64,000 nt of DNA, from contig CBDCKW010000009.1 in the NCBI GenBank assembly GCA_965218435.1, forward strand, positions 2,400,001-2,464,000, given 5' to 3'. Below the pieces are notes generated by a model. That model saw nothing but the letters and a program-made list of their open reading frames with translations. It did not search any database and was not told the origin of the DNA. Position numbers and translations under genes: made by a program. Positions 1 through 64,000 of this stretch are shown piece by piece. This DNA is from Truepera sp. (GTDB lineage Bacteria; Deinococcota; Deinococci; Deinococcales; Trueperaceae). Position 1 is the stretch's first letter; each line of letters starts with the position of its first letter.

Positions 1-1
1 C

Positions 2-1135
2 CCCAATCAGATTCTAGAGATCGCCGTGCGTTACGGCGAACGCAGCTTGCCGGGGCGCAACTTTCCTGACAAGGCGATTGACCTGATTGATGAGGCCGCT
101 GCCCGCACCCGGCTCAACAAGTCGCTCGGTTTTCCGATTTTAGAAGAAGAGGACGGGACCCCGGTCGTCTCGCGCGAGGACATCGAAGCGGTGGTGAACT
201 CTTGGGGCGGGATTTATGTGGATGACCAAGACGACGAAAAGTTGGCGAGTATCGAAACCGAACTCCGCAAGCTCGTCGTTGGACAAGACGGGGCCATCCG
301 CTCACTCGGCTCAGCCCTGCGCCGCGCCCGCGTCGGCCTCGGCGGACGGACCCGCGTCTCAGCGTCGTTTTTATTCGTCGGCCCTTCAGGTGTCGGTAAA
401 ACCTTCCTGGCCAAACAGCTTGCGGTTGAGTTATTCGGTTCTGAACGCTCCCTCGTCCGTTTGGACATGTCCGAATACCAAGAACCGCACTCGATTTCTA
501 AACTGATCGGCGCACCTCCGGGGTACGTCGGTCACGAACAGGGCGGTAGGCTCACCGAAGCGGTGCGGCGTCAACCCTTCTCAGTGGTCTTGTTAGACGA
601 AATCGAAAAGGCGCACCCGGACATCTACAACGCCTTTTTGCAAGTTATGGATGACGGTCGGATGACCGACGGTTTAGGCCGCACGGTTGACTTTCGCCGC
701 GTGATCCTCATTATGACCTCGAATACCGGCTTTAATAAAGCCGCTCAGGTCGGCTTTCAAGACGTCTCAAGAGACGTACAGGGGCCGCTTAAAAACATCT
801 TTACGCCTGAGTTTTTAGACCGCTTAGACGAAGTGATCGCCTTTGAGACCTTTGACGAGCACGGGATTTTGCACATCACCAATCAGATGTTAGACGACAT
901 CCGCGAAGACCTCGCGCAGCGCGACATTCAGGTGTCGTTTAGCCCTGAAGTTGCGACCTTCTTGGTCTCAAAGATGCCTAAAGGCGACTCGGCGCGGCCG
1001 ATGCGTTCAGTGATGCGCGAGCACATCGAAGACCCGCTGTCATTAGAGATTTTGCAGCAGGGCTCGAGCGAACCGATTATGATCGCCGTTGAAGACGAGA
1101 AGGTCGTATTCGCGCGACCGGTAGCCATAGCTTAG
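2..1135 (+). CDS. clpC: ATP-dependent Clp protease ATP-binding subunit (ClpC/ClpA type), 5' end outside window
   Basis: FPDKAIDLIDEA motif; second AAA+ module GPSGVGKT, RLDMSEYQE, LIGAPPGYVG, LLDEIEKAH; frame is open from the window start. Confidence 0.85.
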   Translation, partial: PNQILEIAVRYGERSLPGRNFPDKAIDLIDEAAARTRLNKSLGFPILEEEDGTPVVSREDIEAVVNSWGGIYVDDQDDEKLASIETELRKLVVGQDGAIRSLGSALRRARVGLGGRTRVSASFLFVGPSGVGKTFLAKQLAVELFGSERSLVRLDMSEYQEPHSISKLIGAPPGYVGHEQGGRLTEAVRRQPFSVVLLDEIEKAHPDIYNAFLQVMDDGRMTDGLGRTVDFRRVILIMTSNTGFNKAAQVGFQDVSRDVQGPLKNIFTPEFLDRLDEVIAFETFDEHGILHITNQMLDDIREDLAQRDIQVSFSPEVATFLVSKMPKGDSARPMRSVMREHIEDPLSLEILQQGSSEPIMIAVEDEKVVFARPVAIA

Positions 1136-1152
1136 TAGCGCCGATAAAATGC

Positions 1153-1184
1153 AAGAAAAGCCGAGGAGAACCTCGGCTTTTCTT
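1153..1184. terminator. Bidirectional intrinsic terminator after clpC
   Basis: AAGAAAAGCCGAGG-AGAA-CCTCGGCTTTTCTT perfect inverted repeat with A/T tails. Confidence 0.8.
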
Positions 1185-1241
1185 CTGTTACGCGCTAAGG
1201 TACAGATGAGTTCAAGCTTACCCAAGCTCGAGGAGTAACTG

Positions 1242-1676
1242 TTGACCTACGTCGCAGGTTTTATGTTTTCAGAAAATGGCGCGGACGTTTTACTGATTGA
1301 AAAACAAAGTCCCGCGTGGCAACGGGGATTCTTAAATGCTGTCGGCGGCAAAGTCGAACCCGGTGAGGAGCCTTTGGAGGCGATGACTCGAGAGTTTAGG
1401 GAAGAGACAGGTGTCAACACAGAAAGCTCGGCTTGGTGCCATTTCGTGACAATTCAAACCGGTACAGCACGAGTTGACTTCTTCTTTACTCACAGCAGCC
1501 TCCTGTACGAGGCTCGAACCGTAGAGACAGAAAAGGTTATCTGCTGCCGGGTCGCCAAACTACCGGCCAACATACTGCCCAACTTAAGGTGGCTGATTCC
1601 TCTGGCGCTAGACAAAACCTTGTCTTTTAAGCGCCCAGTTTTGTTGACTGAAACAGCTCACCTTAAAAGAGGCTGA
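1242..1676 (+). CDS. NUDIX hydrolase
   Basis: Nudix box GGKVEPGEEPLEAMTREFREETG; GAGGAG SD before TTG. Confidence 0.85.
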   Translation: MTYVAGFMFSENGADVLLIEKQSPAWQRGFLNAVGGKVEPGEEPLEAMTREFREETGVNTESSAWCHFVTIQTGTARVDFFFTHSSLLYEARTVETEKVICCRVAKLPANILPNLRWLIPLALDKTLSFKRPVLLTETAHLKRG

Positions 1677-1697
1677 CAGCATCTCGCTGTCAGCCTC
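1669..1697. terminator. Hairpin between convergent genes
   Basis: GAGGCTGACAGC-ATCTC-GCTGTCAGCCTC 12-bp perfect stem. Confidence 0.6.
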
Positions 1698-1729
1698 GAG
1701 TAAACCCTACCGGATAAACCGGTACCCTA

Positions 1730-3637
1730 TTACGGGTAGTCTACGATGTAAACCGGAACCCCGATCCTGGTCGTGTCCGCCGGACCTCCGACACCGTTGA
1801 CCACGTGGTTGATCGTTCCGGCGCTCAGGTTAACCGTCAGGATGTGATGCAGCCGAACCCCCGACGTCTCAGGCACCTCAAAGCCGTTTTCAGTGACGAT
1901 AGACGGGTTGTTCTGGTTAAAGACGTAAACACCGCCCCCATAAAGGTTGTGCCGCCGCACCTGATCGCCGACTTTATAGCCGGCGTAACCCAAGGTATCG
2001 CCGTTCATCCAATCGGCCTGCGTAGGCGGGTCATACGGCAATTCGTTTTGGTAGAGAATGACCGTGCCGTTTTCGCCGTTCCAGATGGTGTTGTACTCCT
2101 GGAAGTGCTCGACAAATAAGCCCGTCGCCGTGACGTTGTCGCCGTTAATCACCGCTCCGTTAAGGCCGATGTTGGTATTCCAGCGGTCGGTATCGCCGTT
2201 GACGCCTTTGGTAAAGCCTTCAAGCCCGTGGTCGGCGCGCCACACCCAAGTATGGTCAATGAGCACGTTGTCGCGGTTGACCTCGAGCGCTACATTAGCT
2301 TTACCGATGTGCGGCCCCCCGACCCGGAAGTACACGTCTGAAAGCGTCGTCGGGTCTGACGGATCGTTCTTTTTGGGGCTGCTGTTGCCGTTCTTTTTAC
2401 CGACTTGGAGGAGCACCGGCGACAAAGTAGTGCCCGCGTCAAGGGTAACCCCGGCGACGATGACGCCGGGAACATCAGCAACCGTCATAGGAACGGCCCC
2501 ACCGACTGCGGTCAGCGTCGCGTGCCCGATGCCGAGGACGACCGTATCGGCACGTTTAACTTTGATACTCTGACCGATGTTGTAGACGCCGGGGGTAAGC
2601 AGCAGGTTCTGGCCGCGGGCGAGTGCGTTGTTGATGACCTGCACCGAGTCCGACGGCTTTGCGACAAAAAACTCGCTGAGCGGAACCGTACGGCCTGCGG
2701 TGGCGTCTTCACTCCACGAAGTGCCGCGCGTGTTTGTTCGGGCTGACGGCACACGGACGTTGTACGCGCCCCGCGCGTCAATCAACAGGTAAGGCTTTTC
2801 ACGGCTGACCGGCGTTGTCTGAAGTGTCGTATACGGCGGGTTCGGAAATCCAGCCTCGGACGGGGCACCTTCAACCCCGGAGAAGACCTGGTTCCAGACA
2901 CCGTTCGACCAACCGCCGAGTTCGCTGTTACGCGTAAGCCACTGCTGCTGCGAACCGTTGATCACGAACTCAGTTTTCGAGTCGGCGATAAAGCCACCAC
3001 TCGCGTACTGTGGCCCTGCGGTGCAGTAGTCTTGAAGCGATAAGTTGCCCCCGGTGATATTAAAGCGGCGTAGCGACACAGCCTGCGATACGGCCCAAAA
3101 GTTGGCAGAAGCGCGGCAGCCATCTTGACCTCTACCGTTGACCTGAACTGTGAGGTTAGAAAGTGTACGCCAAAAGTTATTCAGCGCGATACAGTTTTGC
3201 GTACCGTCGGCATTTTGGGAACACTGATTGTAAACCTCGACTTTACCGTTGATGGTAACGTCAGTCGGCGACGCGCCCAAACCGGAGATTTCAGTGTAGT
3301 AGCCGACTTTAATTTGGAGTGGCTGCTCGTTAGTCCCGTACGTGCCCGGTTTGAAGAGATAAGCATAACGTTCACGGCCGAACTGGTTGTCAACCTGCTT
3401 GGCGTACGTGGCGTCAAGTGTTGCTTGAATCTCACTGACCGGCATACTCGAGTCGAAAACCGTGACGTTCTGACCGAGATCACTCTGGCCCCTGGGCTTA
3501 GCGGCTGTTTCCAACGCCGGGTCAGCCGTAAGCGTGCTGCACGCACTGAGAAGAAGTGCGGTACCTAAAAGGAGGGAGAGAGCTCGAGCCCCCCCACGGC
3601 TACTAGGTACCTGATCGGCGGCTTGCGGTTTCTGCAT
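1730..3637 (-). CDS. Lipoprotein, GH55-like exo-beta-1,3-glucanase (bacterial SacteLam55A-type beta-helix)
   Basis: ATG at 3637 with AGAAAGGA SD; lipobox LLSAC; motifs RYAYLFKPGTY, NNFWR, WAVSQA, SGGFIAD, QQQW, WVWRADHG, VEHFQ, QNELPYD. Confidence 0.7.
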   Translation of the reverse strand: MQKPQAADQVPSSRGGARALSLLLGTALLLSACSTLTADPALETAAKPRGQSDLGQNVTVFDSSMPVSEIQATLDATYAKQVDNQFGRERYAYLFKPGTYGTNEQPLQIKVGYYTEISGLGASPTDVTINGKVEVYNQCSQNADGTQNCIALNNFWRTLSNLTVQVNGRGQDGCRASANFWAVSQAVSLRRFNITGGNLSLQDYCTAGPQYASGGFIADSKTEFVINGSQQQWLTRNSELGGWSNGVWNQVFSGVEGAPSEAGFPNPPYTTLQTTPVSREKPYLLIDARGAYNVRVPSARTNTRGTSWSEDATAGRTVPLSEFFVAKPSDSVQVINNALARGQNLLLTPGVYNIGQSIKVKRADTVVLGIGHATLTAVGGAVPMTVADVPGVIVAGVTLDAGTTLSPVLLQVGKKNGNSSPKKNDPSDPTTLSDVYFRVGGPHIGKANVALEVNRDNVLIDHTWVWRADHGLEGFTKGVNGDTDRWNTNIGLNGAVINGDNVTATGLFVEHFQEYNTIWNGENGTVILYQNELPYDPPTQADWMNGDTLGYAGYKVGDQVRRHNLYGGGVYVFNQNNPSIVTENGFEVPETSGVRLHHILTVNLSAGTINHVVNGVGGPADTTRIGVPVYIVDYP

Positions 3638-4159
3638 AGCTATCCTTTCTGGATCGTCATCTAAGGTGTTGTGTAACCTGAGTAAACCACATTCGGTACA
3701 GCTGTCTCTCCCCCATTCCAACACCGCCTCAAAACTGTTTCCCAAAACATGCCCGCGCCCGGTCACAGCAAGAGCCGATTACCTCTTAACCTATGAGCGC
3801 CGCACGGCTTCTAGTGGCGGCTAAAATTCAGGTAAGAGGTATGTTTATGAGTATGAAATTACCTTAACAAGTTCGCTTCATCTTGTCAAATGAAGCCAAC
3901 ACCGAGGCGTCTAAAGAATGACGGCTAACCTAAACTCAAGTTAGCTGTGAGCTTGAGGTAAAGGCGCGACTTAGCACAAAGGACCCGCCCGAAGCCGGAG
4001 TAATCAGGGTACAAAGCCCGCCGCGAAAGTAGGCTAAAACGCGCTGCAAAATAGCTTTTTAGCCCAACTTTACTCAGACTCTCGCCGGGTAACGCTTAAC
4101 TGAGGTGACTTCTACGGTTTCAGCTCGACCTGTACTAAAGGATGTTTGGGAAATAGAGT

Positions 4160-5082
4160 AGACCTCCGGCGAAAGTAGCTCGAAGATGACAACATGTAAA
4201 GATGCGCGAACAAACAGCACGGAGTCTAAAGTTGTCACCTGAGAAGTTCAAACGCAAACTTGGGGTCAAGCCCACCACTTTCAGAACGATGCTGGAGTTA
4301 CTTAAAGCGAGAGAGGGGCGGAAGAAGAAACGCGGACGAACTCCCGCGCTGTGTCTTGAAGACCAACTTGTACTGACCCTATCGTTTTTACGAGAATACC
4401 GAACCCACTTTCACTTGTCAGAAGATTGGGGCGTAGACGAGAGCACCGTGCGGCGCACCATAGAACGCGTCGAAGACGCCCTCATCAGCTCGGGTAAGTT
4501 CACACTGCCGGGACGCAAAGCGTTGCGTGACGACCAGACGCTAGAAGTTGTGGTAGTGGATATTGCCGAGTCGCCGGTTGAACGTCCCAAAAAAACAAAG
4601 TGCCCCAAGCGCAGCGGCAGGGTAGCGGCGTTACTACTCGGGTAAGAAGAAACGACACACGCAAAAGAGCCAAGTATTTGTTGCACAAAACAGTCAGCGC
4701 ATCCTATGTACGGCTTATGGCAAAGGCCGAGCACACGACTTCAAGTTATTGACACAAAGCCGCTGCGCTACGGTGCTCGCGCCAAACACCGAACTTCTTT
4801 CTGATAGCGGCTTTCAGGGCGTGGCTAAGCTTCATCCCAAAAGCCGTACCCCGCATAAACGTTGGAAGGGTAACGTACTTACCCCAGAGCAACAGCTACA
4901 TAACCGCATCCTAGCTAAAGAACGCATCCTCGCTGAACACGTCATTCGTAAGCTTAAGGTCTGGCGTATCCTCAAAGAAACCTATCGTCATCGGCGCAGG
5001 CGCTTTGGACTTCGGCTTAATCTCATTGCTGCTCTCTACAACCATGATCTACAAGCCATTGTGTGACTTTCGCCGGAGGTCT
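4160..5082 (+). mobile_element. IS5-family (ISL2/IS702-like) insertion sequence
   Basis: 17-bp perfect TIRs AGACCTCCGGCGAAAGT (4160-4176) and ACTTTCGCCGGAGGTCT (5066-5082); 3-bp AGT direct repeats at 4157-4159 and 5083-5085. Confidence 0.9.
4202..5066 (+). pseudogene. IS5-family transposase in two frames (HTH ORF 4202-4645 plus DDE part), with an in-frame TAG in the -1 frame
   Basis: A-run CCC AAA AAA A at the usual frameshift site; the -1 frame reads KQSAPSAAAG*RRYYSGKKKRHT...HDFKL...DSGFQG...EH with TAG at 4623-4625. Confidence 0.7.
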
Positions 5083-5269
5083 AGTCAAGCCTTGCAATCA
5101 AGCCCAAGCCGTAAACCTTCTGAGAAGCACCCATACCAGTGAATTCGAACGTGTTTCTGAGAACTCAATCGTCAAACTCAGTACATTAGAGACGAAGAAG
5201 GAAATTCCAAAATACCCTCTACGGAGACGCAGCGGACGACACTACCGTAAACGCCCCCCAGAACGCTGC

Positions 5270-5449
5270 GCCTCCGTCAACCACGCCAATGTGGTACAAC
5301 CCGGCGACTCACTCTCAAAAATTTCTAAAGCGTTTTACGGTACCGGGGCGCACTGGCCCGAACTCCTCGCCGCCAAGCCAAGCTTAAAGAACCCCGATCA
5401 GCTCTTCTCAGGAACGGTGCTCGTCGTTCCGTGCGTTTGCCTTAGCTGA
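5270..5449 (+). pseudogene. LysM-domain gene remnant
   Basis: VVQPGDSLSKISKAFYG...NPDQLFSGTVLVVP is a LysM repeat; the upstream part is degraded and abuts the IS. Confidence 0.55.
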
Positions 5450-5465
5450 TTCAAGGAGAGGCCGG

Positions 5466-6437
5466 TCAAAAAGGTAGCTCGGCTTCACGCTTTGGACCTG
5501 CCGCGCCGTCCCAACAGAGCGGCTTGAAATCGCAGTACGCGCACACCTTTAGCTCGGTCGTCGGAGGGATGGTGTAAGGGTTACGGTCGTCTTTTGCCCG
5601 ACCCGCCAGCAGCGTTTGCATCGCCGTTGCCGATACCTGAAGGTGCGCCTCGAGCCCACTTACCTCTCTTGCTGTAAGCGAATAATCTCTAAGTTCATCG
5701 GTTAAAAGTTGCACCTCGAGCAGCGCCACGTCTTCAGCCCTGAGCCCGCCCAAGCCAGGCATTCCCCCCTGAGCACCGGAACGGAAGAGCGCGAACGCGT
5801 ATCCCGCGAGCTGTTCCCGGTAGTTTGCAGCGGCACGCGCGTGAACTTTCCAGTCTACGATCAGCGGCGGCGCGTTCCGAAAAAAAGCGATCAGGTCGAG
5901 AACAGCGCGCACCGTGACCGGCTCACCGTCAGGGAGCGTAAGCCGGTAGCTGAGCGCCCGTTGCGGAAAAAGTCTGGCGTTTAAGAGCCGCCCCAAGAGC
6001 GGCCTCAGCTCGAGCAGATGGGTCAAGGCCACTTCGATATCGGCCCACGCTTGCCCCAACTTTTCTTCCGCGGGCGTTCTCCCCTGTTCAACCTCGCGGA
6101 GCAGCAAAAAGTCTTTGTGCTGACTCGGTTTGAGGCCGGGTTCATGGAGACGGTGCGACAACGCAAAAGCAAGCTGAGCGTCATAACGTTTTCTAGCGAC
6201 ACTTAAAAGCGTCGCCAGCGTCGGCACCTGCCCCCAGCTAAGGGGCGGTACGACGTGCTGCGTGATCACGTCGTCAACGAGCCGACCGCGCCACGACCAG
6301 AGGCTGTCGAGTTTGCCGAGCAGGTACGCTTCGCGCCGCACCGGGTCTTTGGCTGCGTGATGGGCGACGACCTGCCGGTAAAACCACCGACGCGGGCAGC
6401 CCGCAAACGACCGGCCCGCACTAAACGACCAGTTCAC
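5466..6437 (-). CDS. PD-(D/E)XK nuclease, Cas4/AddB-like with four-Cys Fe-S motif
   Basis: N-terminal SFS...CPRRWFY; motifs D, IVDWK and QLAGY; C-terminal CAYCDFKPLC. Confidence 0.8.
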   Translation of the reverse strand: MNWSFSAGRSFAGCPRRWFYRQVVAHHAAKDPVRREAYLLGKLDSLWSWRGRLVDDVITQHVVPPLSWGQVPTLATLLSVARKRYDAQLAFALSHRLHEPGLKPSQHKDFLLLREVEQGRTPAEEKLGQAWADIEVALTHLLELRPLLGRLLNARLFPQRALSYRLTLPDGEPVTVRAVLDLIAFFRNAPPLIVDWKVHARAAANYREQLAGYAFALFRSGAQGGMPGLGGLRAEDVALLEVQLLTDELRDYSLTAREVSGLEAHLQVSATAMQTLLAGRAKDDRNPYTIPPTTELKVCAYCDFKPLCWDGAAGPKREAELPF

Positions 6438-6547
6438 GCCGCCCGCTGACGTTGGCTAAAGTGCATCCGAGCATTGAGGTCTGCTAAAGGCACTCTGAGT
6501 AAAGCCGTATCCGTCCAATCAAAGCACGTCCCGGTAGCTTGAATCAT
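6434..6547 (-). CDS. 37-aa small ORF or gene remnant coupled to the nuclease gene
   Basis: ATG at 6547 is 5 nt after CATAGT; its TGA overlaps the nuclease GTG (GTGA). Confidence 0.35.
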   Translation of the reverse strand: MIQATGTCFDWTDTALLRVPLADLNARMHFSQRQRAA

Positions 6548-6743
6548 CCCTTACTATGCCATGTGAGCCGCCCGGTTTAGTGGGTTAAGCGGTTGGGGCT
6601 CGAGGCGGCTCGAGCCCCTCCAGAGGTCAGCTTACACAGCGGTTCTTAGCCAAACCATGGTATTTGCAGTCAACGGCTTATGAAAAGCAGAGCGTTACAT
6701 TGAAAATACTACGAACACTTTTCCCTTAGCAATATAGTGATAA

Positions 6744-7469
6744 ATGAAAATTGTCGTCTCAACAGATATACACGCTAATCTACCTGCTTTGAAAGCAGCT
6801 CTGAAACAGATAAAGAGAGAAGGGTATGACCTACTCTTTCATCTCGGCGATGTGATTGATATCGGTCCTTTTCCGGGCGAATGTTTAGACCTCATGCTCA
6901 ACCAAAAGAACAGCCGCTTCGTTATGGGCAATCACGACCGGTGGTTTGTAGAAGGCTTACCTTCAGTTAAGCCTAAGTGGATGAGCGAGGGTGAACTCGA
7001 GCATATAGCTTGGACGCTGGCACAGCTAGACCCTCAGCTACAACCTATAGTCGCCAGTTGGCCTTACCAAATTACAGAAGAGTTTGAAGGTGTAAAGACA
7101 TCTTTTATCCACTATGGTTTAGACGCCGCTGAACAAAACTGGCTGCCTATTATTCACAACCCTCAACCTAAAGATTTGGATGGGCTTTTCTCTTCTCCCA
7201 CATCGTCAGAACTTATTTTTTACGGGCATCATCACCCTTTTTCTGATTTATCGGGAAGAGCACGTTACATAAATCCAGGTGCACTCGGTTGTCATTCTTC
7301 AGCTTTGGCAAGGTTCACGGTAGTTGAGTACAGCGGCTTGAACTATTCCGCTACGCAACGCTCGGTGCCCTATGACGATGCGCCGCTAGTTCAAGCTTTT
7401 AAGCGACGCAACGTGCCCGACAAAACTCTTATCGATCAGGCTTTTTTTGGCGGACGACTCTCTTTGTAG
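6744..7469 (+). CDS. Calcineurin-like metallophosphoesterase
   Basis: DIHAN, GDVID, GNHD, GHHH and INPG motifs; TATAGT 5 nt upstream of ATG. Confidence 0.85.
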   Translation: MKIVVSTDIHANLPALKAALKQIKREGYDLLFHLGDVIDIGPFPGECLDLMLNQKNSRFVMGNHDRWFVEGLPSVKPKWMSEGELEHIAWTLAQLDPQLQPIVASWPYQITEEFEGVKTSFIHYGLDAAEQNWLPIIHNPQPKDLDGLFSSPTSSELIFYGHHHPFSDLSGRARYINPGALGCHSSALARFTVVEYSGLNYSATQRSVPYDDAPLVQAFKRRNVPDKTLIDQAFFGGRLSL

Positions 7470-7559
7470 TCAGTGTGCTTAGCTAGACGTTGCTGAAGAT
7501 TTTAAGCAAGAGTCATGACTGTGGTTCAGTAGTTTAACCAGCCAAATCACCTACCGTTT

Positions 7560-8591: not shown

Positions 8592-8911
8592 AAATGGCCT
8601 CCTTAAAGGTATAAACCGTTTTATCTAGTTGAGAAGAAAGTAGAGTTGCGCGCTCGAGCACCTTGAGGCACCGAGGCAAGCCGTTCCCCAAGCCCCCATA
8701 GATACAAGAGCGTCAAGCATCGGCTAAGTGACTCGGCTCTAAACCAAGCTGGGTGTTTTAGACAAGAACTTTCAAAGTAGGTCTATCGTGGCATAAAACG
8801 AGCGAGATGTCTAACATCGTCTAATTCCACTGCCCGCTCAGTAGAGCGACCTAAAGTTCTGCTGGTACGGTGCAACTTTTTTGTAAGCGTTTAGGACTTA
8901 TGATGGTCTAA

Positions 8912-10249: not shown

Positions 10250-10253
10250 CGCG

Positions 10254-11318: not shown

Positions 11319-11465
11319 AAACTGGGAGTTCATTAGCTTTCAAGAGTTTGAACAGTCCTAACAAAAGTGATTAAAACAGCGATGAACGCCGCTGAGTTGC
11401 TTCGCGCAGAGGGGCCGGAGGCGGTCATGCAGCGGTATAACGGGGTGGCTTTACGCGAGGGATAG
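11319..11465 (+). pseudogene. Possible 3' remnant of a peptidyl-tRNA hydrolase gene
   Basis: Translates VLTKVIKTAMNAAELLRAEGPEAVMQRYNGVALREG*, resembling the Pth C-terminal helix; no 5' part. Confidence 0.4.
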
Positions 11466-11645: not shown

Positions 11646-11711
11646 CTGAATGAGATTTTAGCATATCGGGTTTGGAAGTTAGCTCGAGCCCCAACCACAC
11701 AAACCGATGCA

Positions 11712-11939: not shown

Positions 11940-11958
11940 ATGTACATCATAGCGTGCA
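11940..11958. promoter_or_regulatory. Putative YefM-type operator
   Basis: Palindrome ATGTACAT directly upstream of the start, plus degenerate CGTGCA centred 12 bp away; TGTACA is the known E. coli yefM-yoeB operator core. Confidence 0.5.
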
Positions 11959-28948: not shown

Positions 28949-28949
28949 C

Positions 28950-53629: not shown

Positions 53630-53857
53630 AGCTCAACTATAAAAAACTTTGGCGGGCCGGTCAGGGTTTCCGACTACCGGCACTGGCCAGTTGGTCTATC
53701 TAAAAAACGTCACAGTTCGGTAGTTTGGTATTTCAACTCTCGCCGAGTCAGTCACTTTTATCGTTCTGCAGTGGAGCGGGCGGTGTTGAGCTATAGTGCT
53801 CATAAATGACATAACACGGGCGCTCCAGTCAGGTTCGGAGGGTGCCGAAAGGGTGAC

Positions 53858-55120: not shown

Positions 55121-55351
55121 GATTGGTGAGTTTTGACTACACTTAAGGTAACCGGTCAGCGTGTCTGATACGGCTTCACAACGGGCTTTGTAAGGATTTT
55201 TGTAAGTACCTTTTTCGTCCGATAGCTTACAGCTGAGCAGACTTGTAAAGTGCTACGATAGCTCTACTGAAGACGCCCGCTTTGTGAAACCCGAATCTAT
55301 GACGGATTGCCCGCGGGCGGGCTGTCCGGCACGCCATCTGGAGGCACCATC

Positions 55352-57340
55352 TTGAAACGAACGTTTAACCCCTGGTTCTTTGTTATTCTGATTGTTTTAG
55401 GGGTTGTAGTCTTTAATCAGTTTAATGCGCGCCCACCTGGGAGCAACATCAGCTACTCAACGTTTACCAACCTCGTCAAAGAGAAAAAGGTGAGTTCGGT
55501 CGTTATCGAGCAAAACACCATTCGCGGTGAACTCAAAGCCGAAACGCAAGTTGATGAAGGGGGCCAGACACGCGCGATTCGCTCGTTTGAAACGACGACC
55601 TTGCCGGTCGGCGACCCCAACCTCGTTCCGTTGTTAGAAGCGAACGGCGTCGCAACCGAAGGGCGCGTCCCGTCACAGTGGCTCGGCCTGCTCATCTCGT
55701 TTTTACCGATTGTCATTCTGATCGGCTTTTTCTGGTTTGTCTTTATGCGGGCGCAAGGTGGCCCAAGCCAGGTCATGCAGTTTGGTCAGTCTAAGGCTAA
55801 AACGTACGGCCGCGAAAACAAAGTTAAAACAACGTTTGACGACGTAGCCGGACACGAAGAGGCCAAGCAGGAACTTAAAGAAGTCGTTGACTTTCTTAAA
55901 AATCCGCAGAAGTACCTGCGTATCGGCGCAGAGATTCCTAAGGGAATGCTCCTCGTCGGCCCTCCCGGAACCGGTAAAACGCTCTTGGCGAGAGCCGTTG
56001 CCGGTGAAGCGGGCGTCCCCTTCTTGACCGTTTCCGCGTCTGAATTTATGGAGATGTTTGTCGGCGTCGGTGCGAGCCGTGTGCGTAACCTCTTTGAAGA
56101 GGCGCGTAAGGCGAGCCCTGCAATTATCTTCATTGACGAGCTCGATTCGATCGGGCGGCGACGCGGCGCGGGTATCGGCGGTGGTCACGACGAACGCGAG
56201 CAGACCTTAAACCAAATCTTGTCCGAGATGGACGGGTTTGAAAAAGACACTTCGGTCATTATCATCGCGGCCACGAACCGCCCCGACGTGCTGGACCCGG
56301 CGCTCTTACGCCCCGGCCGTTTTGACCGGCAGGTTACAGTTGGTCTGCCCACCCAGCGTGAGCGCGAGCAAGTCTTAAGGGTTCACGTACGGAACAAGCC
56401 GATTGCCGATGACGTCAACCTCGAGCGTCTCGCCAGCGCCACCCCGATGTTTTCCGGCGCTGACCTAGAAAACCTCACCAACGAAGCCGCGCTGATCGCC
56501 GCCCGTACCGGCAAACAGATCATCTCGTGGATCGACTTTAACGAAGCACTCGACCGTATCGTTTTGGGGTTACGCCGGGGCTCGCTCGTTCCCAGTGAAA
56601 AAGAACGGCAAATTCTGGCCTTTCACGAATCTGGTCACGCCGTCGCCTTTGCCTCACAACCCGACCTCGGCCACATCCGCAAGGTGACAATTATGCCGCG
56701 CGGCGGGGCTGGCGGGTTTATGGCTCCGTTATCCAAAGAAGAGATGTTCTTCTCCCGGGAACGGTTTCAGCAGCAGCTCGTGGTCGCCTTTGGTGGCCGC
56801 GTCGCTGAGAAAAAGTTGACAGGCACCATTTCCTCAGGTGCGTCCAACGACCTTAAACAAGCGACCGATATGGCTAAGCAGATGGTTTTTGACCTCGGGA
56901 TGGGCGGCGAAGAGTTTGTCGCTTGGGGTTCGGATCAAGGCCCGGTCTTTTTGGGTGGCGAAATCAGTCGCCGCAAAGACTTCTCTGAAGAGACGGCTAG
57001 GGAACTCGAGGGCGAAGTCAACAAGATTCTTGGGGCCGCTTACAGCACCACTGAAGCCGTGATTGCCGACAACTGGGTTACAGTTCAAGGCGTTGCCAAC
57101 GCGCTTTTAGAACGCGAGACCATCGAAGGTACGCTGATTGCTAAGGCATACGAGCGCGCTCAAGAAGGTGCGAGCGCCGAAGACATTACCCGGATGATCG
57201 TCGAAGATACCGACGCCGCCGAGCGCCGTATCGCCGCCGCCGAGCAGCGCGCCGCTGAAGCCGACCGGCAGCGCCGCGCTGAACAGCGCCCCGCGCCCAC
57301 CATCGGCCCACGGCCCGCTTCGGAAGGGCCTCGAGGCTAG
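55352..57340 (+). CDS. ftsH: ATP-dependent zinc metalloprotease FtsH
   Basis: GGAGG SD before TTG 55352; two TM segments; [29 protein letters not shown] and GASND. Confidence 0.96.
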
Positions 57341-57362
57341 CAGTCAGTTTTTAGCAATATCT

Positions 57363-57392
57363 AAAGAGACGCGTCACAGCGTCTCTTTTTTT
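57363..57392. terminator. Intrinsic terminator after ftsH
   Basis: AAAGAGACGC-GTCACA-GCGTCTCTTTTTTT. Confidence 0.8.
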
Positions 57393-57418
57393 GGATGAAT
57401 GCTTAGATAAGGCTGAAA

Positions 57419-57895
57419 TTAAGCAGCGTACATGCTCTGTAAAAAGACAATGAGCGCGTCTTCACTGTCAGTAACATGGTCTAGCGGAACCCGTAACATC
57501 GGATTGAGTTTTGCGCCCACAAACGCGGCTCGCACGTCGGTCTGTAACCCGACGAGTAATTTACGTTTACCGCTCAGATAAGCGTGCGCGTACGCGAGAC
57601 CCAGCTCGACACACGCACCTTCGTCGGGGACGCGGCCGTCGAGCACGAACAAAAAAACCTCCGCAGAGAAAATCTGGTCGCGGTCGGTTGCAAAGAGGAG
57701 TTGCCGTTTTTCGTCAGCGGGCATCGTGTCATAAGGTGGGCGGTCACGTTCAACGCCGTCGCGCTGGGGCAAAAACACGTTGAAGTTTAGGGCCTCGAGC
57801 TTTCCCGTAAGCGTCAGATTAAAGCGGCGTTCGGCCGCTGAAAAGAGCGGCGCAGCAAAGTAGAGTTTTGGGAGCGGCGTAGTTAGAGCAGTCAC
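57419..57895 (-). CDS. Nucleoside 2-deoxyribosyltransferase family protein
   Basis: YFAAPLFS.AE..FN, VFLPQ and LDG..PDEG..VELG.AYA motifs. Confidence 0.85.
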   Translation of the reverse strand: MTALTTPLPKLYFAAPLFSAAERRFNLTLTGKLEALNFNVFLPQRDGVERDRPPYDTMPADEKRQLLFATDRDQIFSAEVFLFVLDGRVPDEGACVELGLAYAHAYLSGKRKLLVGLQTDVRAAFVGAKLNPMLRVPLDHVTDSEDALIVFLQSMYAA

Positions 57896-58148
57896 AAAGT
57901 CAGTTTACCTGCAGATTTTTAATTTCCTAGAACCTATCTCAAAAATGGCTTTTTAGACCGAGAGCACCATAGCTTACTCGTAGCTACCTCACCCAGCTCG
58001 GTCGAACCCTTTCGGGCTGAGGTCCAAAGGAGTTTTTGAGCTGGCTTCTAACTACAAAACCCGAGAGAAAGATAGCTACCGGAAGGAGCCTGACATAGAC
58101 TTAAAACCTCAACACGTGATCCGCTGGCGCGTCATAAGATAGTAGGGC

Positions 58149-59867
58149 GTGTTAGACGGCAAGTACGAGATCACTTCAGAGCGGGAGTTGGGCGAGCGCG
58201 TTACACGTTTTGGCGCGACGGCTCCAGACGGTACGGCCTTGACGATCAGCTGGTACGAGCTCGAGACGCCCGCAGACGAACACGCCTTCGAGCAGTACCG
58301 GACCCTGTTACGGCAACTCAGGCGCAGGGGACACGCCGCAATTTTCGACCTCGTTTCACGTCCGGGAGCCCACTACGTCGCGTGGCGGCTGCCGGGAGAC
58401 GTGGGCGCGTTGCCGGTGGCGACCGGCGCTGAGCTGGGCGCTATCGAAGAGATCTTAAGCGCCTACGCGCACACTCTAACTGAAGCGTCTATCTACGCGC
58501 CGCCGGATGCGCCCCCGCAGGTCTATGCGCTCGAGTTTGCCGCTCTACCGAAAACGACCTTGCCTCTGGGCCAGGCCACGCCGGTCTTACCGCAAGAGCT
58601 CAAAAAACCTCACCGGGCAACCCCGGCCGCAGCCGTGTGGACAGCGGTTCGCCCGTGGTCACTGGCAGGCGTTTTGGGGCTTTTAGGGATTTTCTTGGTG
58701 TCGCTCAGTCTGAACAGGCTGTTGCAGGGCGAGCTGGTCAGTGTTCCTGACGTGCAGGGGCAAGATGTCAACGCTGCCCTCACCAAGCTTTACGACGCAG
58801 GCTTTCGGAGCGTCGCGGTCCCCCTGACCTCGCCCCGTCCGGCTGGGGTGGTGCTCGAGGTACGCCCGGAAGCCGGTACACCGCTCCGTCCGGGCCGGAC
58901 CCTCAGCGTCCGCTACGCGCTACCTGTCGGTAGTGCGCCGGAGGCGTCGCCTAACGTCGTCGGTCAACCTCTAGCCCAAGCCGAGGCCGACCTGGAACGG
59001 GCCGGATTTCTTGTCAGCGAGCTGGCGCGTAGCTACAGCCCGTTACCGCGTGGGACGGTGATCGCCCAAAGCCCGGACGCTGCGACGCCCGCCGCGCGCG
59101 GGGAGCACTTTGCGCTGCTCGTTAGTGACGGGCCGCTGGGTGAGCTGACCTTTTTACCCGACCTCACCGGCTTGTCGCAAGAGGACGCGTTAGGGCTTGC
59201 GGAGGCTGCCGGGTTTGCCCGTAGCGAGGTCAAGCTCGAGCGCACCCCCGGTAACGGCACCCCAGCTGGAACGGTGTTAGCCCAAAACATCGCACCTTAT
59301 ATCAGCGTGCCGCTTCAGGGTGCTCAGTTGCGGCTGGTACTGACGGCTCCCGGTGGGGCGGCGCTTCCCGGTGAAAGCGGCCCCAATGAGAGCGGCACCC
59401 CCGACTTCACCGGGTTAGACCTGGGAACGGCGCAGCGGCAGGCAAGGGCACTCGGCCTCAGCGTCGTCGCCGAAGCTCAGGTCAGTGCGCCGGAGTTGCC
59501 TACGGGCGTGGTGTTGCAGCGCCCGGAACCGGGTGCGCCGCTGCAGGAAAACGTCCGGGTAACGCTCAACCGAGCGCCGCTGAGCGTCCCCATCCCTGAG
59601 GTGTCGGTCAACGTTATACCGGCCGCCGGGGCCGGGTCGGTACGCCGCGCCCGCTACGTCTGGCAGCTCGGGCAAGACGCCGGTGGACGCCTTGCCACCG
59701 TTACGGTGACCCTCGCCGACGGCACCCAAGAAACGGTGACGCGGGGGCAGCTCGTTACAGCCAACGAGCGGTTGGGGGGTACCTACTTAACAACCGCTAC
59801 CGGCCCGCTGGTCTTTACGCTGACGCTTGACGCTCAGCCCTACGGCGCACCGGTCACCGTCCCCTAA
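58149..59867 (+). CDS. Membrane-anchored PASTA-domain protein with degenerate kinase-like N-terminus
   Basis: One TM segment then repeated VPDV.G / PNVVG / LPDLTG / PDFTG PASTA units. Confidence 0.75.
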   Translation: MLDGKYEITSERELGERVTRFGATAPDGTALTISWYELETPADEHAFEQYRTLLRQLRRRGHAAIFDLVSRPGAHYVAWRLPGDVGALPVATGAELGAIEEILSAYAHTLTEASIYAPPDAPPQVYALEFAALPKTTLPLGQATPVLPQELKKPHRATPAAAVWTAVRPWSLAGVLGLLGIFLVSLSLNRLLQGELVSVPDVQGQDVNAALTKLYDAGFRSVAVPLTSPRPAGVVLEVRPEAGTPLRPGRTLSVRYALPVGSAPEASPNVVGQPLAQAEADLERAGFLVSELARSYSPLPRGTVIAQSPDAATPAARGEHFALLVSDGPLGELTFLPDLTGLSQEDALGLAEAAGFARSEVKLERTPGNGTPAGTVLAQNIAPYISVPLQGAQLRLVLTAPGGAALPGESGPNESGTPDFTGLDLGTAQRQARALGLSVVAEAQVSAPELPTGVVLQRPEPGAPLQENVRVTLNRAPLSVPIPEVSVNVIPAAGAGSVRRARYVWQLGQDAGGRLATVTVTLADGTQETVTRGQLVTANERLGGTYLTTATGPLVFTLTLDAQPYGAPVTVP

Positions 59868-60018
59868 CGCTGAGTTAGCCTTTGCTTATGCCACCATATT
59901 TTAGAGACGTAAGAGAAGCCGTGTTCGTCAGCAAGCCAGTGACTACCGAATTCTGACTACTGCCTTCTGACTTCTTCTCTATACCGTCAACGCCGCCAGC
60001 TGAGTTAACACTTAGCAG

Positions 60019-62307
60019 CTAAGGCACCGGCGCACCAGCGAGCGCCCACCGCGCGTAAAGTTCGGCAAAGGCCCCGTCGGTATTGGCACCTTGCAAGATA
60101 AAGCTTAAAAAGTCCCGTACGTCTTGCGCGTTACTCGAGCCAAATAGCGCTGCGCCGTCATCCCCGGCAAACCGTCCGCTAGAGACGACCGGCAGCGTTT
60201 CAGCAGCTTGAGAGGTCGCACGTGAAAGCTCACCGAGCAGCGCCCCCAGCAGCGCATCGTTCCCTGTCGTCCCCGAATAGAGCAACTGCCCGGTTTGCAG
60301 GCTGCGGAGCGTCACCCCACGGCCGATAAGCTGCCGTGCCAGCGGCGCAGGCAGGGCCGAAACAGTGACCGGCAGGCTCGTTTTCGCCGTGCGGCCCCGT
60401 GCACGCGCCGACACCTCGAGCGTGTACCGCCCCGGCTTGAGGCTCCGCGGTAAGCCCAGCGCAGCGTCGGTGACCTCGAGGGCGACCGTATTCGGCGGTA
60501 AGGGTGTCCGCTTAGTTGTCGAAGACGCGCCGACGACGCTGCCGCTCCCGTCAGTCAGGCGGAGCGAAATCTGCAGCGGCGTCGGGAGCGCGTCTCCCGG
60601 CGTCGAGAGTTCAAACTGCGTGTAAAGCAGGTCACCCGGAAGATAGGCGGGTACGGCCTGCACCTCTGCGCCGACCCCGGCTTGTAAGCCCGGCGTAAAC
60701 CGTAAAGGCGGCGCAGGAGCCCGGAGCGCCGCCACCCGCGCCGCAGCGTCGGCGACGAGCGGCCCCCGCCCCTGTTCCGTAAAGCGCCCGAACTGCGCCG
60801 CAGCCGCTCCGGGCCGACCGCTTGCCTCGAGCAGCGTTCCCAAAAGATAGCGAAGGTCGGGCACGTCGGGATACCGTTTTAAGGCCCCACGCAGATCGTC
60901 CGTTGCCGCCGGATCGAGCTGATCGTCGTCTTGTAAATCGAGTTCGGTGGCGTGCGCGTAGGTACCTAACGCCAACCCGGAGCGGCCCAAAAGCACCTGG
61001 ACGAGCCCGAGGTTGTAGAGTGCAATCGTCTCGTCCGGGCTCAGCGCCAGCGCCTTTTGTGAGGCGGTTTCACTCGCGCCAAGTGCGCCCAGCAGGTAGT
61101 ACGCCCAACCCAAATTGGTCCAGTAAAGGTCACTTTCAGGCTCGAGCCGGGTTGCGGTGCGAAGGGCCGTAGCCGCCGCCTCTGGATCGTCCCGGTCAAA
61201 CGCAAGCTGGGACAGCCGTTCGTAAGCGTAGGCAAAAGTTGGAGCCAGCTCGGTCAGACGCGTGGCGAGGGTCTGCTCGAGGCCCCCATCTTTTAGCCCT
61301 TGCGCCAAAAAGAGCCCGCTCACATAGACGCTGAGCGTACCCGGGTACTGTCGCACAAGAGCCTGCAGGTCAGCTTTAAGAGCGGCGGCGTCCGTTTGAT
61401 CGAGTTGGTAGAGCAGTGCCTGAGCTGCAGCAAAAGGGTACTGGCCCTCTGCTGCAGCAAACTTCTGGCGGGCCTGCGCAGCGTCCCCGGCTTGCGCGGC
61501 GAGAAGAGCCCGCCAGAGCGTCGTTAGGGGTAAGTTGCGTGCAGAGAAGGCTCGAGCCACCTCCGTGTCGTCAAAAGGTTGCGTATTGAGCGCGACCACC
61601 GCCGCCAGGAGAGGATAACGCGTCAGGGCCGTTCCCGGCTGCGCCGACAAGAGCTGAGTTACGGCCTCGGCGCGGCGCGTCCAACGTGGTTCGGCGCTGA
61701 GGGCGGCCCCGGCGCGGCGCAGGAGCGGCGCAGCCTGGGCCGGAAAACCGCTGCCGAGGTCAATTAAGCCGTCAATAAAGGTGCTGTAGGGCGACGACAG
61801 GTCAATTCCGGTGCGGGCGTCCGGGTTTGGCGTCAGACCGGTAAGGCTGAGTACCCGCTGCGCCTGCACCACCAAACGTTCGGGAAACGCTTCGGGTGCG
61901 CTGAAGACGAAACTGCGCGTCCCTTCCGGCCGCGCAACGAACAGCGTCAGCTCGAGCCCCTCCCCTTTCAGCTCGACCCGTCCGGTCACCGCTGTCGGCA
62001 CGGCGAGCGCCTCACGCAAAAAAGCTGCCGCGAAACGGCTCCCGGTGCCTTCATCCCCCAACAAGTTTAAGGGGCTTACGAAGGTGGCTTCTTGCAACAA
62101 GAGCGGCGGCACGAGCCCGAGCGCAAGTTCCGGCGGGATGCTCGCGTCTTGAAACGCGTAGGTCAGGCGTTCAGCCACCGCAAAACCGAGGCGCGGTTCG
62201 CTGCTGACAAAGGGAAACACCGCCAGCTGTGGACCGGTAGCGCCCTGTGCCGAGGCCAAACTGCCCCAAAAAAGCGTGATAAAAACCAAAAACTTAAGTG
62301 GCTTCAC
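60019..62307 (-). CDS. Exported tetratricopeptide repeat protein
   Basis: Signal peptide; TPR motifs YWTNLGWAYY and ALYNLG. Confidence 0.75.
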   Translation of the reverse strand: MKPLKFLVFITLFWGSLASAQGATGPQLAVFPFVSSEPRLGFAVAERLTYAFQDASIPPELALGLVPPLLLQEATFVSPLNLLGDEGTGSRFAAAFLREALAVPTAVTGRVELKGEGLELTLFVARPEGTRSFVFSAPEAFPERLVVQAQRVLSLTGLTPNPDARTGIDLSSPYSTFIDGLIDLGSGFPAQAAPLLRRAGAALSAEPRWTRRAEAVTQLLSAQPGTALTRYPLLAAVVALNTQPFDDTEVARAFSARNLPLTTLWRALLAAQAGDAAQARQKFAAAEGQYPFAAAQALLYQLDQTDAAALKADLQALVRQYPGTLSVYVSGLFLAQGLKDGGLEQTLATRLTELAPTFAYAYERLSQLAFDRDDPEAAATALRTATRLEPESDLYWTNLGWAYYLLGALGASETASQKALALSPDETIALYNLGLVQVLLGRSGLALGTYAHATELDLQDDDQLDPAATDDLRGALKRYPDVPDLRYLLGTLLEASGRPGAAAAQFGRFTEQGRGPLVADAAARVAALRAPAPPLRFTPGLQAGVGAEVQAVPAYLPGDLLYTQFELSTPGDALPTPLQISLRLTDGSGSVVGASSTTKRTPLPPNTVALEVTDAALGLPRSLKPGRYTLEVSARARGRTAKTSLPVTVSALPAPLARQLIGRGVTLRSLQTGQLLYSGTTGNDALLGALLGELSRATSQAAETLPVVSSGRFAGDDGAALFGSSNAQDVRDFLSFILQGANTDGAFAELYARWALAGAPVP

Positions 62308-62762
62308 TCGAGTAACCCCTCGAGTTCGTCTAATATCGTCTCGGCGTCGCTCTCGCTGCGCGTGACGATCATGATGGTGTTTTGCCCCGCCAGACTCCCG
62401 ACGATTTCGTCGCGCTCGAGCTTATCGATCACATACGCGATACCGGTCGCGTGCCCTTCGTCGGTATTAACCACTAAGATATTTTCGCCCCGGTCGATGT
62501 CCCGGACAAACAGCCGAAACCGCTGTTTCAGCTCGCCCATCACGTCTTCTTGGGCAGCCAGCGGCGTCGAGCGGTAGCGGTGCTGACCTTCACCAGCCGG
62601 AAGCCGGACGAGCCGGAGTTCATTGACGTCGCGGCTGATCGTCGCCTGCGTCACTCGGACGCCACGGGCGGCTAGATGGTCGGCGAGTTCGGATTGCGTT
62701 GAGATAAACTCGTTTTCAACCAACTCTTCGATAAGCCTTTGTCTATACTCTTTACTCGGCAT
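62304..62762 (-). CDS. argR: Arginine repressor
   Basis: TQSEL, VTQATISRD and VGSLAG..T motifs. Confidence 0.95.
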   Translation of the reverse strand: MPSKEYRQRLIEELVENEFISTQSELADHLAARGVRVTQATISRDVNELRLVRLPAGEGQHRYRSTPLAAQEDVMGELKQRFRLFVRDIDRGENILVVNTDEGHATGIAYVIDKLERDEIVGSLAGQNTIMIVTRSESDAETILDELEGLLE

Positions 62763-62773
62763 AATTATTCATT
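62756..62773 (-). promoter_or_regulatory. ARG box overlapping the argR -10 and start codon
   Basis: AATGAATAATTATGCCGA next to a perfect TATAAT. Confidence 0.6.
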
Positions 62774-63064
62774 ATACCAGGTTTGCTTTACAGCTTGCGA
62801 GCAGCGGCTCAGCTCGGTTCAGACGCTACAAATCTTTATCAGCATGTGATGGATGGGCGTAGGGGTAAGGTACGCTGAACGCGCTTAAACGCCGTATAAA
62901 CAACGCCGTATAAACGCTGGTATCGCTTCCAGCTTTTGTGAAATCTGGCGACCTTCCAGAAGAGACCAACTCGTTGCTAAGTCTTAAACAAAGACTTACC
63001 CGGGCGTTACCATAACTTGCGCCTGCCCTGCGCCCTTGCAGTACTCAGCTACTAGGAGGCTACC

Positions 63065-63142
63065 GTGTTAGAGGACGCTAGAGCTTTTTGCCCACAGGCA
63101 AAGGTTTTTGACTTGACCTTGAACATGAAGCCGCGCCCATAG
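63065..63142 (+). CDS. Possible 25-aa small ORF
   Basis: AGGAGG SD 5 nt before GTG; MLEDARAFCPQAKVFDLTLNMKPRP. Confidence 0.35.
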   Translation: MLEDARAFCPQAKVFDLTLNMKPRP

Positions 63143-63214
63143 GTCTGGCCAAGCGCGGATTCATGGTGACGTTACGCCTTTTTTATCGTGAACTACTTAC
63201 GAGGCGACTCAAGG

Positions 63215-64000
63215 TCAAGCCTCACCCATCATCAGGCCCTCGATCGTATGGCCTTGTTTAATAGGCTCGAGTTCATCAACCAGGCGACAGGTGAGGTGCT
63301 GACGCACGCTTTCGGGCAGCGTGTCGAAGTACGCTCTCGTAAGCTGCAGGTCGTGGCGCTCAGCGTTGTTCGCTCCGGGCGCGTCAACCCCGAGGACGAG
63401 TACCGGGCGGGGCTTGTTCGAGCGGTTGGCCGTGCCGCGGTGAATCGTCAGCGCCGAACGCACCGAAATATCGCCCATCTGCGGCATTTTCCGCTGTGCC
63501 CGTTCCTCGTACCGCTCATATAGTGACCGCGGCGGGAACATCTCGTGCTCGAAGCCTTCGGGTGTGTCCCACTGCGTGCCGGGGGCGACGACAAACGGTC
63601 CCATGTCCTCGAAAACGTCTACGGTAGTCACATTAAACGCCAGCGAGTTGAGCCGTCGGCCCTGCAGCGTGTCTTCCGGAGCTGGGAAGTCGCGGTGCCA
63701 CGGTTGGTCAACGGCACCGGGATTGGGTACGTCGAAGCCGATCTCGACAATCTTGTATTCTGGACCCAGCACCGCCTCGCACACTGCCGTGACCCAAGGG
63801 TGTGTTACAAGCTCGAGAAAGCCGCGAATGTCCTCAGGATGGATTTCTACATAGTGGCGCTTGGGGCCTCGGCCAACCGCGCCGCCGGGACGCTCGAGCG
63901 CAACTCGGTACAGCTCTTTGATATCTTCCCCCAAGGCTTCTACCCAGCTGCGGCTAAAAGCGCTCTTATAGCCGATAATGCCGTCTCCGTAAAGACCTCC
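63215..64000 (-). CDS. PhyH-family Fe(II)/2OG dioxygenase, 5' end outside window
   Basis: QPWHRD (HxD) and HRGTAN.S..PR motifs; frame open to the window end. Confidence 0.85.
   Translation of the reverse strand, partial: GGLYGDGIIGYKSAFSRSWVEALGEDIKELYRVALERPGGAVGRGPKRHYVEIHPEDIRGFLELVTHPWVTAVCEAVLGPEYKIVEIGFDVPNPGAVDQPWHRDFPAPEDTLQGRRLNSLAFNVTTVDVFEDMGPFVVAPGTQWDTPEGFEHEMFPPRSLYERYEERAQRKMPQMGDISVRSALTIHRGTANRSNKPRPVLVLGVDAPGANNAERHDLQLTRAYFDTLPESVRQHLTCRLVDELEPIKQGHTIEGLMMGEA

Follow-up and report, generated by a model that had tools for sequence, protein, structure and literature searches.

The palindrome CTCGAG in Truepera and other Deinococcota, a likely Chi signal of AddAB

Background

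What keeps a six-base palindrome scattered through a bacterial chromosome at several times its expected frequency? The question is raised by a 64,000-nucleotide stretch of the Truepera sp. genome (contig CBDCKW010000009.1, positions 2,400,001 to 2,464,000; hereafter the window), in which a sequence-only reading had counted about 155 CTCGAG sites where about 20 were expected and had compared the word with HIP1, the highly iterated palindrome of cyanobacteria. A lineage-specific system was proposed to create or maintain it, for example an orphan methyltransferase with biased repair, a DNA uptake or recombination signal, or nucleoid organisation.

We assessed the abundance of CTCGAG in this genome and among its relatives and compared it with the presence of AddAB, the enzyme described as degrading DNA from a double-strand end until it meets Chi on the 3' strand, which yields a RecA substrate (PMC5443536, PMC11143384). 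CTCGAG is common almost only in relatives that keep AddAB and is therefore likely the Chi signal of the phylum. No paper on a CTCGAG excess or on a Chi sequence in Deinococcota was found in a search that left subscription journals and bioRxiv supplements outside.

Abundance of CTCGAG in the window and in the genome

The window contains 157 CTCGAG, against 20.5 ± 4.3 expected from 100 dinucleotide shuffles (maximum 30), and the earlier count stands nearly unchanged. According to the heuristic gene calls of this analysis, 91, 14 and 22 of these sites fall in the three reading frames and 30 lie outside genes, in agreement with the description of a word present in coding and intergenic DNA and in all frames. 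It is extended to GCTCGAGC at 43 of the 157 sites.

1063..63898, unstranded: 157 dispersed CTCGAG as candidate Chi sites, running from 1063-1068 to 63893-63898

The excess extends to the whole genome (hereafter G000), where 9,883 CTCGAG were counted in 4.81 Mb distributed over 9 contigs (2.06 per kb, i.e. about one per 490 bases). CTCGAG is the commonest hexamer of this genome and, among the 64 palindromic hexamers, the only one to exceed an observed/expected ratio of 1.13. Its own ratio reached 6.1, 5.2, 3.4 and 1.24 at Markov orders 1, 2, 3 and 4, respectively, the low value at order 4 being due to the fact that 19,766 of the 28,165 CTCGA words are part of CTCGAG itself. Single-base variants of the word occur at 0.59-1.14 of expectation; TCGA is therefore not the driver and the hexamer is the unit.

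Synonymous-codon shuffling was applied to 3,390 of the 4,262 genes called in G000, again heuristically. Coding CTCGAG numbered 7,298, against ~2,085 after shuffling (3.5-fold), with excesses of 3.2-, 7.4- and 5.3-fold in the three frames, and 1,720 sites were found outside called genes for 292-305 expected (~5.7-fold). CTCGAG ranked third by ratio in this shuffle, behind TTTAGA and TTTTAG. At the codon level, Glu is encoded by GAG in 96 % of cases after CTC, versus 41-60 % after other Leu codons. The sequence-only reading had expected the enrichment to vanish, were it spurious, once codon usage, Leu-Glu dipeptides and the TCGA and CTCGA sub-words were controlled for; it persisted, and both the genome-wide Markov models and the codon-preserving shuffles that were suggested as checks upheld it.

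No longer consensus was detected around CTCGAG, the flanks showing just a lineage-dependent preference for G or C at the first position. The extension differs in G062 (L363), in which CCTCGAGG predominates (36 of 73 sites) where G000 has GCTCGAGC. Many other palindromes are strongly avoided in G000, among them GGCGCC (0.02), GGGCCC (0.03), TTTAAA (0.04), AGGCCT, GCCGGC, GCATGC and RGATCY; TTTAGA and CTTAAA are raised, probably compensating for this avoidance.

Distribution among relatives and co-occurrence with native AddAB

Relatives were grouped in families whose labels are inferred: f1 (Trueperaceae), f2 (Deinococcaceae), f3 (Marinithermus family), f4 (Thermus/Meiothermus family) and f5 (uncultured). 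Whole-genome counts, set against composition samples of 3-200 kb, gave order-2 ratios of 10-22 in f5, 2.1-5.7 in f3, 2.6-5.5 in f4, 1.0-17 in f1 and 0.2-1.9 in f2 (six genomes, with a GC content no lower than in f3 and f4). Density reaches one CTCGAG per 0.15-0.2 kb in f5, and the single contig of G060, a member of this family, carries 23,515 CTCGAG (4.6 per kb). GAGCTC, CTGCAG and TCGCGA are nearly absent from f5 genomes.

The addA and addB genes of G000 lie in one cluster:

G000:C9:3359875-3362589, minus strand: addA, outside the window
G000:C9:3363359-3365677, minus strand: addB, outside the window

A 258-residue metallophosphoesterase-like gene stands between addB and addA (G000:C9:3362586-3363362); the two are adjacent genes in most relatives.

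Co-occurrence was tallied over 226 genomes of the order (G215 excluded, genome sizes rounded). Genomes with at least 0.5 CTCGAG per kb were classified as rich, a threshold that was chosen afterwards, the split holding for thresholds from 0.3 to 1.0. Rich genomes represented 101 of the 105 with native addA or addB (median 1.46 per kb) versus 1 of the 121 without either (median 0.09 per kb). Among the roles initially proposed, that of a recombination signal is thus the one favoured.

The AddAB idea was drawn from the first 61 genomes and then tested on all 125 f2 genomes. In the first set, 54 genomes had native addA (E value of 1e-88 or better). The other seven were G007, which has the lowest CTCGAG density of the f1 genomes in that set, and the six f2 genomes, three of which held distant addA homologues at ~1e-33. 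Among the 125 f2 genomes, the CTCGAG-rich ones are G062, G176 and G177 only (3.6-8.6 per kb), all with native addA and addB, and all 119 without native AddAB are poor in the word, a partial addA match in G103 (2e-47) being counted as foreign. The split even runs through genus g46, in which G176 and G177 have addA, addB and CTCGAG and G178 (5 contigs, 95 % complete) has none of them; ComEC and MutS are kept in G178 and in G037, both of which lack CTCGAG. In f1, addA went undetected in three fragmented assemblies of at least 90 % completeness, of which two have addB. In metagenomes, 78 of 80 loci around AddB exceed CTCGAG expectation (1,672 vs 591), these loci overlapping the same lineages. Deinococcus species are described as mostly devoid of RecB/AddA (PMC6300522).

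Many of the weakly enriched high-GC f1 genomes, for example G013, G018, G022 and G033, carry an additional, foreign frame for an AddAB-like nuclease. It might relax selection on CTCGAG, GC content and kinship being confounding factors.

Three genomes of genus g45 (G173, G174 and G175) have native AddAB and almost no CTCGAG. A search made after this exception appeared retrieved another word, CCAGAG, of which G174 has 22,865 copies (4.5 per kb; 2,571 for the reversed-word control). In its coding sequences, 190 CCAGAG were counted versus 36.5 after synonymous shuffling, and all six frames are above expectation. G173 and G175 have ~1.5 per kb, with a ~2-fold excess centred on the CCAGA core. Six g33 samples, G178 and G007 yielded no comparable over-represented word. 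The hyper-abundance in g45 of CCAGAG, or of its CCAGA core, was seen in sequences L347-L362.

The Chi-scanning domain of AddB

A profile built from 60 AddB sequences had B. subtilis AddB as its best match among solved chains (E value 2.5e-10), and so had the predicted AddB model (pLDDT 90, pTM 0.73; Foldseek E value 7e-26). For the addA/addB cluster, the best matches are TIGR02785, which stays under its cut-off, and, in profile as well as fold, B. subtilis AddB. In B. subtilis AddB, T44, R70 and F210 are described as contacting Chi bases, and D41, Q42, F68 and W73 as shaping the pocket (PMC4614115). Both Chi helices align, with Q45, Y72 and F186 opposite Q42, W73 and F210; the alignment shows little or no variation at Q45, Q68 and Y72, and the positions of Q42, W73 and F210 are kept or conservatively changed in Deinococcota. 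Judging from profile and model, AddB keeps the fold of the Chi-scanning inactive-helicase domain, a fold that does not say which word is read. The pocket comparison used named homologues not matched to genome handles; proteins named as native AddB come from Deinobacterium chartae, Deinococcus misasensis and Thermus filiformis.

Maintenance of CTCGAG and effect on proteins

Orthologues of G000 and its congeners G004 and G005 (79 % nucleotide identity, ~235 kb aligned) were compared, as the sequence-only reading had suggested. At conserved Leu-Glu pairs, CTCGAG was kept in 80 % of cases, versus 39-60 % for other CTC-led codon pairs; the odds ratio for retention of CTCGGC was similar to that of CTCGAG. 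The word also weighs on protein sequences, the Leu-Glu dipeptide occurring at 1.24 times expectation in G000, 2.0-2.3 times in f5 and 0.94 times in f2. A TaqI-like methyltransferase is carried by the genomes of g35; there, CTCGAG stands at 0.70 of expectation and other NTCGAN codon pairs at 0.15. These sequence comparisons indicate that CTCGAG is held by more than codon bias. With the excess, the retention in orthologues, the effect on proteins and the co-occurrence with native addAB, the proposal of a lineage-specific system maintaining the word is borne out.

Spacing of sites, site-free stretches and mobile DNA

Spacing was analysed through gap sizes, 100-kb bins and pair distances up to 120 bases. 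Gaps between CTCGAG are near Poisson in G000 (coefficient of variation 0.95), gaps under 50 bases are at or under expectation, and the density stays between 190 and 246 per 100 kb in all 39 full bins; the clustering reported from the window was not supported. Absence of the word from mobile DNA was confirmed for multi-copy repeats, which contain 7 CTCGAG in 47 kb of G000 (0.15 per kb), and examples stand in the window. Low-GC windows have 1.74 CTCGAG per kb versus 2.14, and no CTCGAG was found in the 46 tRNA genes of G000. An Rfam scan of the window gave zero matches. Features of the window are as follows:

33898..33925: three CTCGAG within 28 bases; genome-wide, short gaps are no commoner than chance
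4158..5083: multi-copy transposase-bearing repeat with no CTCGAG, an example of recently arrived DNA without the word
12410..14361: site-free stretch of 45 % GC with a 362-residue frame on the minus strand, likely foreign DNA
38680..39367: site-free AT-rich gene
53936..56419: 2.5 kb of ordinary genes (55 % GC), the longest interval of the window without CTCGAG and still compatible with a Poisson spread
5466-6437, minus strand: stand-alone PD-(D/E)XK nuclease-domain gene (PF12705), separate from AddAB

Contigs G000:C6 and C8 are small plasmids assembled as partial tandem repeats, with units of ~13 and 10.5 kb.

Methyltransferases

Active m6A enzymes that recognise CTCGAG are listed, with no cognate endonuclease beside them in the table, for Marinithermus hydrothermalis, Meiothermus ruber and M. 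chliarophilus, and the orphan enzymes M.Mhy14884I, M.Mru1279II and M.Mch9957IV share both the target word and the phylum (PMC4752239). Two families presumably correspond to the published locus tags of the Marinithermus/Meiothermus enzymes, namely P0123, a TaqI-like methyltransferase (E value 2e-126 to M.TaqI), and P0122, an Eco57I-domain methyltransferase unrelated to P0123. The latter, we assume, resembles M.PaeR7I. Full-length relatives of P0123 and P0122 occur in 4 and ~7 of 61 genomes, respectively. None was found in G000, so that the search for an XhoI/PaeR7I-type methyltransferase proposed with the window ended without a member of these two families there. Likewise, no XhoI-family endonuclease was found in G000, a negative that shows little since the same search was also unmatched in control genomes.

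Among the methyltransferases examined in G000, P0001 is the sole one kept vertically:

G000:C9:3672240-3673922 (L002, L014): P0001, orphan N6-type methyltransferase beside dnaG

Of 36 f1 genomes, 20 have it as an orphan in synteny, and so does one f4 genome. Within its family, 52 of 80 loci adjoin a putative endonuclease, and at these 52 loci CAGCTG is the most avoided palindrome (83 vs 290, 0.29) and CTCGAG is neutral (0.93). P0001 was rejected as a CTCGAG methyltransferase, its specificity being deduced from site avoidance only: CAGCTG is the palindrome that the restriction loci of its family avoid, and most carriers outside the phylum show no enrichment. Five P0001-carrier contigs without a Deinococcota title (L067, L076, L077, L082 and L084) are CTCGAG-enriched and may be mislabelled or unlabelled members. 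The putative endonuclease beside P0001 relatives had no Pfam match (4 of 4 tested) and is often located between carA and carB in Acidobacteria.

In f5, a search of four Pfam families in G060 retrieved type I/IIG-like frames and, within an island poor in CTCGAG, a single C5 enzyme, and nothing else. A conserved f5 methyltransferase was also considered and rejected, the one C5 family present in 4 of the 5 f5 genomes searched being missing from G060.

Discussion

CTCGAG shares the statistics of HIP1 and of the alternate highly iterated palindromes as these are described (PMC4390886, PMC5861425, PMC13756078): at least one site per kb, occurrence in all frames and in intergenic DNA, and conservation in orthologues. 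To this extent the comparison made from the window holds. Like HIP1, it has disappeared from some lineages, and in others a different word has taken its place. Unlike HIP1, it has six bases, another sequence and another phylum, it follows addAB, and it has no conserved methyltransferase, the nearly coextensive orphan methyltransferase of HIP1-type words having no counterpart for CTCGAG among the families searched. Cyanobacteria are reported to be mostly devoid of AddAB and RecBCD (PMC12094033); AddAB-Chi would therefore not explain HIP1, whose cause would differ.

The resemblance to the Chi sequences of AddAB and RecBCD lies elsewhere. These are presented as short, genome-wide over-represented words, scarce in insertion sequences (PMC4614115 for B. 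subtilis AddAB, PMC5443536 for a putative chi in Caulobacter, bioRxiv 2020.08.13.249359 for proteobacteria), and CTCGAG likewise accompanies a native AddAB with the inactive-helicase Chi-scanning fold, the word changing between lineages. In contrast to known Chi, CTCGAG, known here from sequence, is palindromic and hence without polarity, is 10-30 times denser than Chi of E. coli, and alters proteins. That CTCGAG is the Chi signal of Deinococcota AddAB is the explanation we retain as reasonably probable.

If so, AddAB would chew inward from a broken or incoming DNA end, AddB would likely read CTCGAG on the 3' strand, and a tail would then be left for RecA. A palindromic signal would work from either direction and serve both ends of a break equally, which would suit two-ended breaks as well as incoming DNA. 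The leading-strand gene bias is absent in G000 (49.6 %). Sites would be gained by selection to limit end degradation, to which a repair bias may be added: an allele bearing the site would halt degradation and survive, and a site-less allele would be degraded and replaced by a copy of the template. The scattered CTCGAG methyltransferases may represent protection of an abundant word against XhoI-type restriction. We regard as evenly balanced the broader scenario in which break repair acting on a palindromic Chi drove CTCGAG to one per 120-200 bases in some lineages, rewriting proteins, one genus was retuned to CCAGAG, and Deinococcus lost the word together with AddAB. In T. thermophilus, AddAB is reported to be active against incoming DNA, with no Chi sequence named in the accounts cited (PMC9751324, PMC11143384), and its removal to raise transformation ~100-fold (PMC11143384).

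Several observations weigh against a Chi function. Chi sites are described as strand-biased and non-palindromic (PMC5861425; bioRxiv 2020.08.13.249359), and CTCGAG is neither polarised along the leading strand nor non-palindromic; no replication-strand asymmetry was detected in the flanks and one-off variants of CTCGAG in G000, in a test that did detect a KOPS-like skewed word, and CCAGAG had no consistent strand bias in a 60-kb draft sample of G174. The density, one per 0.5 kb in G000 and one per 0.15-0.2 kb in f5, is far above that of E. coli Chi. The latter occurs about once per 5 kb. The small plasmids G000:C6 and C8, with 5.2 and 3.2 sites per kb, stand above the chromosome. In high-GC f1 and f3 genomes the excess over shuffling is just 1.6-1.7 and CTCGAC is equally high, and in g35 CTCGAG falls below 1 relative to shuffling. 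Regarding AddB, T44 and R70 of B. subtilis are not kept in Deinococcota, the pocket differs widely among lineages sharing CTCGAG, and similar pockets occur in the Deinobacterium chartae and Deinococcus misasensis proteins; hence no co-variation between residues and word emerges. As for the co-occurrence, G223 has addA and addB with 0.29 CTCGAG per kb, and G191 (470 contigs, 91 % complete) has 1.66 per kb with neither gene found. Kinship reduces the data to about three independent contrasts, counted without a species tree. G007, without the word, is also without ComEC and MutS, and the genes tested as alternatives were few (ComEC, MutS, methyltransferases), so that another gene may have been lost together with addAB. 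Given the lack of polarity, the high density, the few contrasts and this possible co-loss, we consider that CTCGAG likely works as a Chi signal and do not file it as a member of that class.

A different protein could nonetheless be the reader. Another protein that binds DNA, be it a nucleoid organiser, a recombinase or an uptake receptor, may have CTCGAG as its site, with losses alongside addAB and a change of specificity in g45; we hold this to be unlikely, though it is the most probable of the alternatives. Palindromic symmetry suits a dimeric protein, polarity is absent, HIP1, for which a role in chromosome structure has been put forward (PMC5861425), is similar in its even spacing and very high density, and few alternatives were tested beside AddAB. 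On the other hand, no candidate DNA-binding protein is in hand, the switch of g45 to a non-palindromic word fits a single-strand reader better than a symmetric dimer, and the reading of short over-represented words is established for AddAB, whose predicted pattern in f2 also came true. Less probable still, in our view, is a methylation-directed ratchet of the kind set out for HIP1 (PMC4390886, section 3.4), in which methyltransferases would mark CTCGAG and biased mismatch repair would fix new sites and protect old ones. The active m6A enzymes of Marinithermus and of two Meiothermus (PMC4752239) speak for it, as does the fact that two unrelated families seem to do the CTCGAG job, several enriched f1 and g38 genomes without the P0001 family carrying the P0122 family. 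Such enzymes are, however, patchy and drawn from unrelated families: G000 has no orthologue of either CTCGAG-type family, the restriction loci of the P0001 family avoid CAGCTG and leave CTCGAG neutral, G060 has no standalone candidate shared with its family among the four Pfam families searched, and the CTCGAG motif is absent for M. silvanus from the same table (PMC4752239). MutS, moreover, is kept where CTCGAG was lost (G178 and G037), and the scattered methyltransferases fit better as protection against XhoI-type restriction. The orphan methyltransferase with biased repair, initially proposed, is not supported.

Two further explanations appear very improbable. One is a DNA uptake sequence amplified by biased uptake during natural transformation, for which a uniform spread, an effect on proteins and absence from insertion sequences would be expected, as observed, and G007 has neither ComEC nor CTCGAG. 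Yet ComEC was present in 4 of 5 genomes tested, of which two, G178 and G037, are without CTCGAG, and this part of the original proposal is not upheld. Known uptake sequences are longer and non-palindromic, and we know of no sequence preference for DNA uptake in Thermus or Deinococcus. The other, equally remote, is a by-product of codon use and of the avoidance of other palindromes, Leu-Glu being pushed to CTC GAG. It draws on the strong avoidance of GGCGCC, GGGCCC and TTTAAA in G000 and on the small excess, shared with CTCGAC, in high-GC relatives. The ~5.7-fold excess outside genes, the 5-7-fold excess in the two frames that do not encode Leu-Glu, the 10-22-fold excess in f5, the changed amino-acid content and the depletion in f2 genomes of the same GC content all argue against it. 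It is largely refuted for G000 and f5 and may explain part of the excess in high-GC lineages.

Should CTCGAG be the Chi of Deinococcota AddAB, a phylum-wide hyper-abundant palindrome would receive a testable cause, and the missing Chi of the genetic model T. thermophilus would be supplied. A symmetric Chi would also break the rule of polar, non-palindromic sequences on which computational Chi searches depend, and Thermus, Meiothermus and Truepera could become easier to transform with linear DNA to which CTCGAG has been added. The change of word in g45 and the contrast between G177 and G178 represent natural experiments in the co-evolution of an enzyme and its signal.

Additional observations

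Clusters of CTCGAG at the Nocardia origin share the same target (PMC4752239); G000 differs, with no local cluster near its GC-skew minimum (1-3 sites per kb; the dnaA position was not located). Across G000:C9, GGGGAGA is leading-strand-skewed (AGGGGAGA 124 vs 15) and is a candidate KOPS-type segregation signal.

Viral sequences were uninformative: phage P74-26 has 6 CTCGAG versus 11 expected in 50 kb, within a general TCGA avoidance, and among 80 viral loci selected for their clustered sites, 9 are enriched. Methylated CTCGAG and TCGA are reported to be shared in one hot-spring host-virus group (preprint 10.64898/2026.06.24.734251). In the viral contigs L467/L468, L487 and L505, CTCGAG is packed in blocks of 4-6 kb or reaches 6 per kb throughout.

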